64,000 nucleotides of DNA from NCBI RefSeq assembly GCF_024521635.1, contig NW_026250430.1:434001-498000 (forward strand), given 5' to 3'. A program made the position numbers and the translations under genes. Below, piece after piece: positions 18,312 to 45,488 of this stretch (position 1 is its first letter; each line of letters begins with the position of its first letter). The DNA is from Tricharina praecox (lineage: Eukaryota). A model generated the notes under the pieces. That model searched no databases, was not told where the DNA came from, and saw only the letters and a program-made list of their open reading frames with translations.

Positions 18312-18494
18312 CTAGCCCCCGCGCGCCTTCTTCTCCGCCTCGTTAGCATTCGCCTGATGGCAAGCAAACTGCTTGTCGGCACAGCGTTTTGCACACAGCG
18401 CATTCGCGCACACCTGCTGCCTCATGCTGTTCATGAATTCGCAGGCTGTTTACTTCCACTTGTACACTGCAGGCTTGGATGATGCGCCACCCAT
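18312..18494 (-). pseudogene. Family B zinc-finger microprotein copy 1 (nonsense at first Cys)
   Basis: MGGASSKPAVYKWK*TACEFMNSMRQQVCANALCAKRCADKQFACHQANANEAEKKARGG; TAA at 18452-18450. Confidence 0.85.
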
Positions 18495-20064
18495 TGTGGC
18501 CGTGTGTGTGTGGGAAAAACTAAGGGAAGAGTGTGGGAAAGAAGTTTATTCGATGTGGTGATGTTGAGGGTCGTGTGTGTTTGTTCGTCTCGGAGGTTCA
18601 GATAGCTTTGTTCAGTTTGTGTGTGGTTTTCGTGAGTTGTGCAGTAAGGTATAATGCCATGGGCGCACTGTTAGTGAGGTTTATATCCGCTGGATGCGGT
18701 GAGGCTCATTGAACGGAACATACGCTTCAACTGCCATACGCATCACCGAGCTTTAAACACGCAGCGCTGGCAACAACACGGCTGGTCGTTGAATGCTGCG
18801 CACCCCCGGGTGTCAGTTAGGTACCTACCCAGTTCATCGAGAGGCGTCGCGTGTTGCAGTGCTGTTTTGGTTAGTGAGGCCACAGCACTTGGAAGGATTT
18901 GTGGCTCGACAGACGGCAGTCCGGGCTTGTCGACGGGGGGGTCACGGTGAGGGAGGATATGTCTGCATACACTCCTGCACGTCATGTCACTCGTTTCGGG
19001 ATTGGCTGAGGTCGGCCTTGGAGCTGGATCATTCCCGCTGAAGAGATATTCAGGTATGATTGCTACACGCGATCCGTATATATTGACTATAGGTGAGGAT
19101 TGGTATTAGGCTGGTTCGGAGAAGCTATGTCACACGTATGTACGAAGGCTGATTGGAAAGAAAAGAAAATGCGGACTTGATTAAAGAAAACAGCAGTTAA
19201 CGCCTAGATACACCTTCCAGCGTGGGCAAGAAAAAGCAAATAATAATACTCCAAAGACCCTCAGGCAATGAGTGCAAAGAGAAGCCATGACAGGGAATTC
19301 AGTAAGGGGCCCGGGGGCTTTTCCCGCAGCCAGATGAGTAGGACGAGTAAGACGAGTAGGGGGGGGAGGGCGAGGAGACTCCTTCCATAGCAGGTCGGCA
19401 AGGCGAGAAGGAAGAGAAGGACAAGTAGGCCGAGTAGTACGAGTCACAGTAGTAGGACGAGTAGGACGAGCATGGCGGGGAAATTCTGAAATTGCTGCAA
19501 TAGAAGAGATCTCGAGGCTGTCGCTCCTGGGCTAAATGCACTCGTTCATATCTAATCCTAAAGAAAATTAGTAACGATTGAAAACGTGCTACAGAGCTAA
19601 GATAGCCTGTCTGACAGGATACATACTCGTGATCTCAAAATTGCGAATGTCTGATGTAACTTCAGTGCAGGAGAGGAAACCACAACCACGCCGCCGCCGC
19701 CGCCGCCGCCCTCCTCTACCACACCCAGACGCCCGCCAGCAACCCACAGCCCGTCGCTAGAACCATCGACACCCCCAGCCCGAACACTGCATCGTACAGC
19801 GTTGCTCTCCACTCCTCCTCCCTCTTCCTCTCGTTCACCACCGGGACCACGGGGCTAGGCTCACGCCAGGCCCGCATGGCTGTTGGGAACACGACCGGGG
19901 GTGCTGGAGCAGGTGCCTCCAGTTCCCACTGCCGCGGCCCCCCTCGCACTACACTAACCTTCTGCGTCCGCGTAACCGCGGACGCATCCAGAGCACTGCC
20001 GCCATCACTGCCGGGTGTCTGGTTCAGGCGGGGATGAAGAGGTGGCTGCCGGGCAGCAACGTAG

Positions 20065-43900: not shown

Positions 43901-45281
43901 TTGGCTTGTTAATTACTTAGGCGTGCTGGGGATGATTATTGACCTTCTTTCTTTTCTTTCGCACGCTGTAACGTGCATCTGGACGGTACCTATTTGATTT
44001 ACTTTCTAATAGAGCTTGTATTTTTGTTTCCAGTCGGCGGTATGTCCGTGTGACTACTAGTAGCTTCGCTGAGTGACTGTGAGCCCAACTCTATATATAG
44101 GCTATCCATACTTACCTACGATACCTACATAACGCGTATAAGGATCGCTGTTGGCGATCATACCTATGTCTAGCGGCGAAGATCCAGCTCGAGAACCACT
44201 ACATCCGAACCCGGAAGTCGCATATCTAATTATCCTTGGAAGCGCCGACTCCCGCCGGTTCAACTGCCGACCAGGCTGCGAGAATCAGAATCTACTAGTT
44301 CTTTGCTCGGCCTCACACAACCCAACCTGAGTGACATCACGTGTCGGAGTGTATGCAGACACATATACTCTCCTCCCTCCCTCCACAGGCCCAAACCGCA
44401 GCCCGCCGTGCCACAATAGCCCAAATATATGCACGACCGACTGCTGTGGCCTCGCCATACATGGTTGCACTGCAACATGCGGAGCTCGATGAACTAGGTA
44501 AGTACATACCTAATTGATCGTCTGATACCGGAGGTCCGGCATTAGCGATCACTCGTTCGCCTGCTGGCGGTCTGTTGAAAACACATAAGGATGGAGAAGC
44601 TACGTAGTGCTGGAGATGCAGAAGTATATAGGTAGCCGAGTACACACCCAGATATTGGGTAGTCCGGTGCGCATGATCTGTTCCGGTGCCCGACCGGTGC
44701 GCATGTTTTAACGAGGCCAACGAGAGCCATTGGCCTAACGTAGTACTACCCTCGTCTCGCTTTTCTTTTGAGTCTTGAGACTCTATCAATACAATACACT
44801 CGTTCATCACAATCCAATCCAACAGGACCGCTGGTAGTGATTTCGGGTGACAGTTCATGAGCCTGCTACTCTTGCACTTAGGACATACCGTACGCCAGAC
44901 CGAGCTCTCGTATATACTATACAGTTCCTCTAGGGCGTGTTGCTTCAATGCAAAGCGCCCTATCCATTTCAAAGATAAAACTAACGTGAATGACCACTCG
45001 AAGCGCACCGAGCAGCCCACCGAGCAGCGCTCAGCCATTGAATGACCGGCCAGTTTGCTGCTACACTTTCAAAGCTCAGTCATGCGTATGGCATTTGAAG
45101 CGTATGTTAGGTTCTATTGACCTCACCGCATCCAATAGATATAAACCTCACCAGCGGTGCCCCAAAGTTGCCTTCATCATCCTCACCAATCACAAACACA
45201 CCGAGTCTCAGCACCACACCTCGAACAAACGTCTTCCTCACACTTTTCCCAGACTTTTCCCACACATAAAATACGATCACG

Positions 45282-45488
45282 ATGGGCGGCGTATTATCCA
45301 AGCCGATAGCACCGAACATTTACAAGTGGAAGTGCGCATCCTGCGGGAACAAGAACAGCAAGAGTACGAAGACGTGCGAGAACACGGGGTGCGGAAAAGA
45401 CTGCGCCGACAAGCAGTTCGCTGCGCATGTGGCGGCTGCCAACCAGGCTCTCCTATTGTTGGGGATAGGTGCGTGGTTGGCTGGTTAG
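45282..45488 (+). CDS. Family B zinc-finger microprotein copy 10, 68 aa
   Basis: MGGVLSKPIAPNIYKWKCASCGNKNSKSTKTCENTGCGKDCADKQFAAHVAAANQALLLLGIGAWLAG. Confidence 0.85.
   Translation: MGGVLSKPIAPNIYKWKCASCGNKNSKSTKTCENTGCGKDCADKQFAAHVAAANQALLLLGIGAWLAG

Follow-up and report, generated by a model that had tools for sequence, protein, structure and literature searches.

Two groups of RanBP2-type zinc fingers are known to contact their ligands through residues after the second cysteine: in NZF fingers a Thr-Phe pair right after it contacts ubiquitin, and in the fingers of Nup153 and RanBP2 a Leu-Val pair contacts Ran. The signal for N-myristoyltransferase (NMT) consists of a Met-Gly start, Ser or Thr at position 6 and, at position 7, a residue other than Pro, a basic one being suitable, while tandem arrays of microgenes are exemplified by yeast CUP1, which encodes a metallothionein. 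Here we analyze a locus of the pezizalean cup fungus Tricharina praecox that brings features of these systems together. It lies in a window of 64 kb (positions 434,001 to 498,000 of contig NW_026250430.1; all coordinates below are those of the window) and contains ten related copies of a gene of about 60 codons, a size that is routinely overlooked in fungal annotation. In RanBP2-type proteins the fingers are repeats in a large protein, whereas here a single finger makes up nearly the whole product. Comparison of the copies with each other and with their relatives indicates that a small protein-coding gene, left almost wholly without annotation, has undergone a birth-and-death expansion specific to this lineage, and that its products are probably an undescribed stand-alone variant of the RanBP2-type finger, probably lipid-anchored, which was expanded in one fungal lineage. 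Genome assembly is treated in PMC12773724.

The copies, c1 to c10, were defined by tblastn with the 60-residue product of 37303-37482 (c5) against the window. Exactly ten loci were matched, with E-values of 1.7e-41 to 9.5e-17, the following match reaching only E 0.006, and together they cover 18315-45488:

18315..18494, minus strand: c1, a pseudogene with an in-frame stop at codon 15, the place of the first zinc-binding Cys (tblastn E 1.6e-23)
23971..24156, minus strand: c2, intact, 61 amino acids (aa); inverted and separate from the array, carrying a promoter and a downstream block of its own
35139..35354, plus strand: c3, a pseudogene with Gly2 changed to Asn and an in-frame stop at codon 12
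36063..36224, plus strand: c4, degenerate, 53 aa; the Gly-Lys after the fourth Cys is gone, the frame ends early, and neither the conserved promoter nor the conserved leader is present
37303..37485, plus strand: c5, intact, 60 aa; the copy nearest to the cross-species orthologue, used as search query and as the modelled sequence
38968..39150, plus strand: c6, open, 60 aa; the signature Trp13 is changed to Arg
40618..40809, plus strand: c7, intact, 63 aa; subfamily B, with a 3-residue insert before Tyr-Lys-Trp and a hydrophobic tail
42284..42472, plus strand: c8, intact, 62 aa; subfamily B
43697..43900, plus strand: c9, intact, 67 aa; subfamily B, its tail lengthened by an in-frame insertion of 12 nt
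45282..45488, plus strand: c10, 68 aa; subfamily B, with an 8-nt deletion near the end, so that the frame overruns the stop common to c7-c9 into an aberrant tail

Six copies (c2 and c5-c9, 60-67 aa) are fully intact, and three or four of the ten are dead or damaged. Copies c5-c10 lie head to tail at a spacing of 1413-1666 bp, and the duplicated segment, which takes in about 330 nt before the ATG and about 550 nt after it, is present also at c1 and c2, the inverted outliers; the c2 unit can be aligned over 24549-23947 and 23746-23623. The clade of c7-c10 carries an insert of 2-3 residues before Tyr-Lys-Trp, and has Trp and Cys in its tail where the other copies have two Arg. A preliminary description of this DNA had spoken of ten paralogous genes, each with a promoter. 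The ten loci are there, but c1, c3, c4 and c10 are stopped, truncated or frameshifted, and c4 has no promoter.

That the family is a real protein-coding one appears to us highly likely. The inference that it is a protein-coding gene kept by selection rests on the gene signals of the units together with the pattern of substitutions, the in-frame indels, and the restriction of cross-species alignment to the coding part. We estimated ratios of nonsynonymous to synonymous substitution rates (dN/dS) by the Nei-Gojobori method, with about 37 synonymous sites per paralogue pair, so that single values are noisy, which tells against leaning on any one of them. Among the intact copies c2 and c5-c8 the ratios were 0.16-0.49, including 0.16 for c5 against c8 (Fisher p 1e-5) and 0.19 for c5 against c7 (p 6e-5). 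Pairs involving c9 or c10 gave 0.30-0.78, and pairs involving c1, c3 or c4 gave 0.32-1.38, with c1 against the other copies at 0.5-1.4 and the three pairs among these pseudogenes at 0.68-1.38. Orthologous comparisons pointed to purifying selection as well: c5 against the gene of metagenome locus L002 gave 0.20 (dS 1.06, p 2e-5), c5 against that of L005 gave 0.18, and L002 against L005 gave 0.32. Cross-species blastn alignments were confined to the coding sequence, at -17 to +183 of the unit. The earlier claim that indels within the coding part are nearly all in-frame was borne out by the ten-copy alignment, in which gap events were multiples of three in 3/3 cases within codons 1-50 and in 6/7 over the whole coding part, against 19/49 in the promoter and leader. 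A Trp-Gly-stop end is common to c2, c5, c6, c8, c9 and to the relatives P0001, P0003 and P0006. Three soil metatranscriptome runs compared with 34800-46200 at 80 % likeness yielded two pieces, 36-37 nt long and each with 5 mismatches; these are noise and uninformative either way.

The history of the locus can be followed through its relatives. A metagenome scan returned eight loci, of which five were kept as true relatives, each with one copy; L001-L003 encode P0001, and L004-L005 encode P0004. The other three (L006-L008) were dropped, since what they encode, within larger proteins (about 830 aa or 165 aa), are zinc ribbons without relation to the family or Cys-rich stretches. The lone gene of L001-L003 is flanked on one side by the inverted homologue of window 57.8-61.8 kb, an STI1/HOP gene, and on the other side by homologues of window 46.9-51.7 kb, including UDP-glucose pyrophosphorylase; this second region borders the array on its right. 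The neighboring proteins are up to 96 % identical, indicating that this relative is close, and because it carries a single copy in the syntenic position, the expansion that gave the array is specific to the lineage. Values of dS between intact paralogues (0.2-0.6) were lower than the 1.06 to the L002 orthologue, which fits an expansion after the split. In the tree the clade of c7-c10 was supported at 97/99, and the remaining branching order and the placement of the L002 orthologue were not resolved. The amplification by local tandem duplication that had been suggested earlier is upheld by the head-to-tail arrangement of c5-c10 and by the single syntenic copy in the relative. The array may have grown by unequal crossing-over from one ancestral gene beside the UDP-glucose pyrophosphorylase gene, after which the copies would have diverged, the clade of c7-c10 would have swapped two tail arginines for Trp and Cys, and three or four copies would have decayed. 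In the window, the STI1/HOP gene lies at 57.8-59.7 kb and the UDP-glucose pyrophosphorylase gene at 49369-50778 on the minus strand, and the two are rearranged with respect to L001-L003 by an inversion around the microprotein locus.

Pieces of units also occur apart from the ten copies, suggesting the remains of at least one or two further lost units:

19101..19234, minus strand: orphan downstream block beside c1 (blastn 70 % over 141 nt), probably left by a lost eleventh unit
34180-34247: orphan promoter fragment, a piece of a unit, before c3

Dispersed repeats of 50-70 nt sit between the units and outside the array as well, and may be remnants of a small mobile element. One group, D14, was found at 26303-26353, 33722-33772, 35781-35831, 36684-36734, 44311-44361 and 45879-45929, and another, D11, at 36876-36945, 39823-39892, 41737-41806, 42906-42975 and 46091-46160. 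Between c1 and c2, at 20065-22626 on the minus strand, there is an open frame of 853 aa that is rich in Pro, Ala and Ser and has no Pfam match.

The gene signals of a unit are illustrated by c5, together with the block that follows it:

36997..37302, plus strand: promoter and leader of c5, with CAAT at 37061, ATATAAA at 37086-37092, and an A+C-rich, G-poor leader up to the ATG in the context ATCACAATGG
37712..37850, plus strand: conserved non-coding downstream block of c5, found in 9 units (repeat families D9, D10 and D19)

An ATATAAA box lies 143-251 nt upstream of the ATG in 8/10 copies, preceded by a CAAT motif some 25 nt further upstream, and c8 has TTTAAA at the aligned place. The leader, of about 200 nt, is AUG-free over at least its last 165 nt and leads to a start codon in the context ACAATGG; it is rich in A and C, with 6-12 % G in 9/10 copies. 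The conserved promoter that had been ascribed to every unit therefore holds for most of them, the exception being c4, which has 29 % G and no aligned TATA box. Upstream of the L002 orthologue there is a similar CAAT...TATAA pair with a G-poor leader without ATG. In several units of the array (37112-37330, 40424-40696 and 43507-43704) an ATG is conserved 12-26 nt after the TATA box.

Conservation along the unit was measured as pairwise identity among c2 and c5-c10, with positions relative to the ATG:

Coding sequence: 0.77-0.85
-306 to -146, promoter block: 0.58-0.76
+219 to +404, 3' flank: 0.07-0.19
+405 to +546, downstream block: 0.56-0.75

The statement that the flanks diverge freely among the paralogues was thus correct for +219 to +404 only, and not for the promoter or the downstream block. 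The latter, about 140 nt long and almost on a par with the coding sequence in conservation, was seen also at 40853-40992, 42516-42655 and, on the minus strand, 23612-23752, and holds a CTAAT...TTTCCAG stretch resembling a branch point and splice acceptor. Its candidate roles are 3'-end formation, the end of an intron in the 3' untranslated region, or a regulatory site. An RNA element was considered and rejected, as RNAalifold gave -7.3 kcal/mol with a penalizing covariation term and no supported structure; Rfam had no match within 17000-47000, the downstream block included.

The products themselves have three parts, namely a disordered N-terminal tail of the form Met-Gly-x-x-[Ser/Thr]-Ser-Lys-Pro, one zinc ribbon, and a C-terminal helix. 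The copy translations and their alignment returned the consensus anticipated in the preliminary description, with its MG-x2-SSKP start, YKWKC, four-cysteine finger and helix; in full it reads MG-x2-SS-K-P ... Y-K-W-K-C-x2-C-x10-C-x4-C-G-K-x-C-x-D-x2-F-x2-H plus the helix. In an alignment of 11 rows (A2; seven window copies with P0001, P0004, P0006 and P0010), M1, G2, S6, Y11, C15, C18, C29, C34, C38, D40 and A48 were invariant, and W13, F43, H46, A50 and W59 nearly so. The four zinc ligands of RanBP2-type fingers correspond in the alignment to Cys15, Cys18, Cys29 and Cys34, which would bind zinc. The helical part contributes Cys38 and Asp40, both invariant, along with Phe43, His46 and Trp59, which are nearly so; the fifth cysteine and the conserved histidine that had been pointed out before are among them. 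The isoelectric point (pI) is 9.1-9.7 in 6/7 open copies. An AlphaFold (AF2) model of c5 had a mean predicted local distance difference test score (pLDDT) of 74.5, with residues 1-7 below 50 and disordered, two short strands, and a helix at 40-59.

The finger is very probably a homologue of the RanBP2 type, as judged from profile and database comparisons that agree with the relationship first proposed. A phmmer search of 1.84 billion proteins gave 15 matches at E <= 1e-3, consisting of eight family members and seven multi-finger proteins; the latter were at E 2.3e-7 to 9.7e-4 and have five to eight fingers of the form W-x-C-x2-C-x10-C-x4-C-G. When three of the seven were scanned with PF00641 (Zn_ribbon_RanBP), they scored 62.8-83.8 bits for 5-6 fingers. 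An hhalign comparison of A2 with 41 fingers cut from the seven proteins placed the four Cys in register in an alignment of 26 columns, at a probability of 94.6 % (E 6.5e-8). PMC7154859 gives the RanBP2 consensus as R/K-x-G-D-W-x-C-x(2,4)-C-x3-N-x6-C-x2-C. Of this signature, the family shows Trp in 13/14 and Asn in 11/14 members, with C-x2-C and the third Cys in place in most. The pattern Trp-x-Cys-x2-Cys-[Gly]-Asn-x-Asn ... Cys-x4-Cys-Gly can be read in register with RanBP2-type fingers. The last spacer, x4 in place of x2, had been regarded as an oddity of the family, a view that does not hold: x4 occurs in 41/41 fingers of the seven multi-finger proteins and is therefore an existing RanBP2-type variant, not peculiar to this family, in which it is found in 12/14 members, P0003 and P0006 having x2. 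The seven multi-finger proteins (P0005, P0008 and P0011-P0015), with 5-8 fingers each, form a distinct multi-finger subclass in which C-x4-C is followed by Gly-x-Pro-Arg and often by Glu-Val-Asp-Gly-Gly-Pro-Pro.

Despite this kinship, the family differs from known fingers at the positions that contact ligands, which we counted at the aligned loop positions in 14 members. Neither the ubiquitin-binding Thr-Phe, whose absence had been remarked on earlier, nor the Ran-binding Leu-Val follows Cys2 in any of the 14; these positions are mostly Gly-Asn. With NZF fingers (Npl4, TAB2, TRABID, Vps36) the family shares the fold class, through weak matches to the TAB2 NZF (Z 3.2, root-mean-square deviation (rmsd) 2.7 over 32 residues) and TRABID NZF1 (rmsd 1.3 over 28 columns), and differs in this missing pair and in the x4 spacer of most members. 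The fingers that bind single-stranded RNA (ZRANB2, FUS, EWS, RBM10) resemble the family in the Asn-x-Asn after the first knuckle. ZRANB2-type fingers bind RNA through a stacking aromatic residue and guanine-binding arginines in the loop, according to PMC6384913. The loop aromatic is present in 40/41 x4 fingers and the loop Arg in 41/41, compared with 0/14 family members for either, where Ser and Thr mostly take their places, and the Asp before the Trp is replaced by Lys, Gln, Thr or Arg. Because the known ubiquitin, Ran and RNA contact residues are missing, the putative binding surface would be private to the family. The fifth Cys, Asp40, Phe43, His46 and the 20-residue helix, which are added to the finger along with the Met-Gly...Ser-Lys N-terminus, are without counterpart in known fingers.

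The N-terminus is the second distinctive feature of the family. The MGxxxS start noted earlier was found throughout, M1, G2 and S6 being invariant in 11/11 aligned sequences from at least 5 sources, with Lys or Ser at position 7; all intact members begin with Met-Gly-x-x-[Ser/Thr]-Ser-[Lys/Ser], within the disordered tail, and the only window copy without Gly2, c3, is a pseudogene. N-myristoylated proteins such as Src-family kinases, Arf and G-alpha offer a parallel in Gly2, Ser6 and mostly Lys7, here within a disordered stretch of seven residues, and the Ser-Lys-Pro at positions 6-8 matches the c-Src signal. These proteins differ from the family, which has no kinase, GTPase or other known cargo domain and no evident second membrane signal. 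The motif makes it rather likely that the family is N-myristoylated at Gly2, and more tentatively, with the odds on the other side, it may act as a membrane-tethered binding module; the 'membrane-tethered adaptor or decoy' of the preliminary description is something we still only infer. In our reading each unit is a complete gene with a CAAT/TATA promoter, the leader of about 200 nt, an intron-less open reading frame (ORF) of about 60 codons and a conserved stop. According to the mechanism that we propose, the initiator Met of the product would be removed and NMT would acylate Gly2, and the acyl chain, aided by the basic character of the protein, could keep the finger attached to a membrane on its cytosolic side, where finger and helix together would bind a partner, presumably other than ubiquitin, Ran or GGU-type RNA because the contact residues for these are missing.

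Taken as a whole, the best explanation of the locus, an expanded coding family of putatively lipid-anchored RanBP2-type single-finger proteins, has in our estimate an even chance of being right, and a number of observations weigh against it. The coding reading is drawn from sequence comparison only. Nine of the ten copies are unannotated, no other copy from the window being among the proteins found, and the only NCBI model in the array splices c10 to a second exon. A second, divergent T. praecox paralogue on another contig (P0009), a partial model of 216 aa that contains the finger, has no Met-Gly start in that model. If transcribed, the conserved ATG near the TATA box (e.g. 37112) would open an out-of-frame upstream ORF overlapping the main start codon. 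With regard to the finger, PF00641 has a gathering cut-off of 27 bits, and the best score in the window was 18.9 bits (E 8.8e-4), with 3/8 window proteins matched; 4/6 relatives were also matched, all below the cut-off. The score per finger is nonetheless alike, at 13-19 bits in the family and 63-84 bits for 5-6 fingers in the multi-finger proteins. The structural model was built from an alignment of 11 rows only, and Foldseek found no match to it in pdb at E <= 0.001, the best being E 0.59; its top rows, all insignificant and at rmsd 0.7-2.4 over 26-33 columns, were ribosomal zinc ribbons and the fingers of RanBP2, Nup153, MDM2, RYBP and TRABID. A second look with VIA reached a best Z of 4.2 (the Pol alpha C-terminal zinc module) and a wide search a best Z of 3.7, which is within noise for a 60-residue model, and in a sequence-profile search of the PDB the Nup153 fingers came first at E 0.2, the others (E 0.85-4.2) being chance matches or ribosomal ribbons. 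The predicted fold is thus compatible with a RanBP2-type ribbon, in which two hairpins surround one zinc, and not decisive. As for lipidation, Gly2 is followed by Arg in c2 and by Phe in P0001, both of which classical NMT rules disfavor in that place, and there is no palmitoylatable Cys or clear polybasic patch that could serve as a second membrane signal.

Four other explanations were weighed against the one just given. The short ORFs could be the first exons of longer spliced genes, as in the single annotated case, hypothetical protein BZA05DRAFT_421608 [Tricharina praecox] (P0002; 101 aa), a spliced model that links residues 1-62, identical to c10, with 39 residues identical to an ORF at ~45.78-45.90 kb. 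The branch-point-like CTAAT and acceptor-like TTTCCAG, conserved about 450 nt downstream of the ATG, would suit such a gene. However, the Trp-Gly-stop end is kept in five copies and in orthologues from other sources, the tail of c10 was made by the 8-nt frameshifting deletion, so that its model was built on a damaged copy, and the downstream block has stop codons in each frame when inspected by eye. The second exon of BZA05DRAFT_421608 (window 45282-45898) is not conserved in other units, and a search for longer relatives found none among 8000 candidates scored, which is weak evidence. We regard this model as probably a mis-model, and the exon explanation as highly improbable. It is no more probable that the unit is a decaying repeat, satellite-like or transposon-borne, whose ORF is no longer translated. 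Three or four broken copies and the short dispersed repeats between units are what such decay would leave, but purifying selection is evident in comparisons of intact paralogues as well as of species, the orthologue occurs once, at a syntenic site with housekeeping genes on either side, and 0/8 array ORFs of 97-233 aa match any Pfam family (E <= 0.01), transposase and reverse transcriptase families included.

The remaining two explanations accept the gene and dispute its role. Dosage amplification of a metal-handling peptide is suggested by a likeness to yeast CUP1, namely tandem units of 1.4-1.7 kb in which a separate promoter precedes each ORF of about 60 codons for a Cys-bearing product. 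Metallothioneins have as their hallmark a Cys-rich peptide with Cys-x-Cys or Cys-Cys clusters; the T. praecox proteins have only 5-6 Cys in 60-68 residues, in zinc-ribbon spacing and with no Cys-x-Cys clusters, and their homology is to RanBP2-type fingers. In addition, the dS of 0.2-0.6 among intact copies reflects old divergence and not a recent homogeneous amplification, the copies being diverged and several of them dead, as in birth-and-death evolution, and we give the metallothionein idea hardly any credence. Less easily set aside, if still improbable, is a zinc-ribbon microprotein, soluble and strongly basic, that associates with the ribosome or with nucleic acid, its N-terminal Gly being kept for some reason other than lipid attachment. 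The high pI of most open copies is in keeping with this, as is the Gly-Asn-x-Asn after Cys2 that the family has in common with RNA-type fingers, and the ribosomal zinc ribbons eL40, eL42 and eS29 were among the weak structure and sequence matches. Yet those ribosomal matches were all insignificant (Z 2.6-2.9, E above 1), the RNA-contact aromatic and Arg that nearly all x4 fingers possess are missing from the family, and the invariant Met-Gly...Ser6 with Lys7 would be left unexplained.

The preliminary description did not recognize this as a described family, and our searches, which covered protein collections and open-access full text, agree. No Pfam family reaches its cut-off, and the database names of family members are only 'hypothetical protein' or a mislabel, P0003 being called 'rubrerythrin' in one source, probably owing to its Cys pairs. 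In the ESM Atlas the best feature score was 0.89, under the useful range, and all clusters were unnamed. Searches of open-access full text gave no paper on myristoylated RanBP2-type or zf-RanBP finger proteins, a looser query had nothing relevant among the matches listed, and among the matches listed for papers naming Tricharina praecox none, as judged from the listings, dealt with this locus.

The present value of these results lies in a well-supported annotation correction and a defined experimental target, and not in a solved mechanism. The annotation gap is considerable, in that 9/10 copies were missed and the sole model was built on a frameshifted copy. The family suggests that a RanBP2-type finger can exist almost free-standing with a probable lipid anchor, an architecture that we have not found described. 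If lipidation and a partner were confirmed, this would add a new route by which the binding surface of a zinc ribbon reaches membranes, and the six intact paralogues with their orthologues would provide a compact, naturally diversified scaffold. The array also appears to be a clean example of microprotein birth-and-death evolution from a single syntenic ancestor. At its most speculative, and with little probability in our own estimate, the interpretation extends to these proteins founding a class of microproteins that each consist of one lipid-anchored zinc ribbon, in which a RanBP2-type finger, freed from large nuclear-pore, ubiquitin or RNA proteins, acquired a Src-like myristoyl tail, a private helix and a new ligand at the membrane. 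If that were true, the array and its clade with the hydrophobic tail would reflect ongoing conflict or rapid specialization, for example as decoys against a mycovirus or an allorecognition system, or as stress-specific recruiters in a fire-following fungus.

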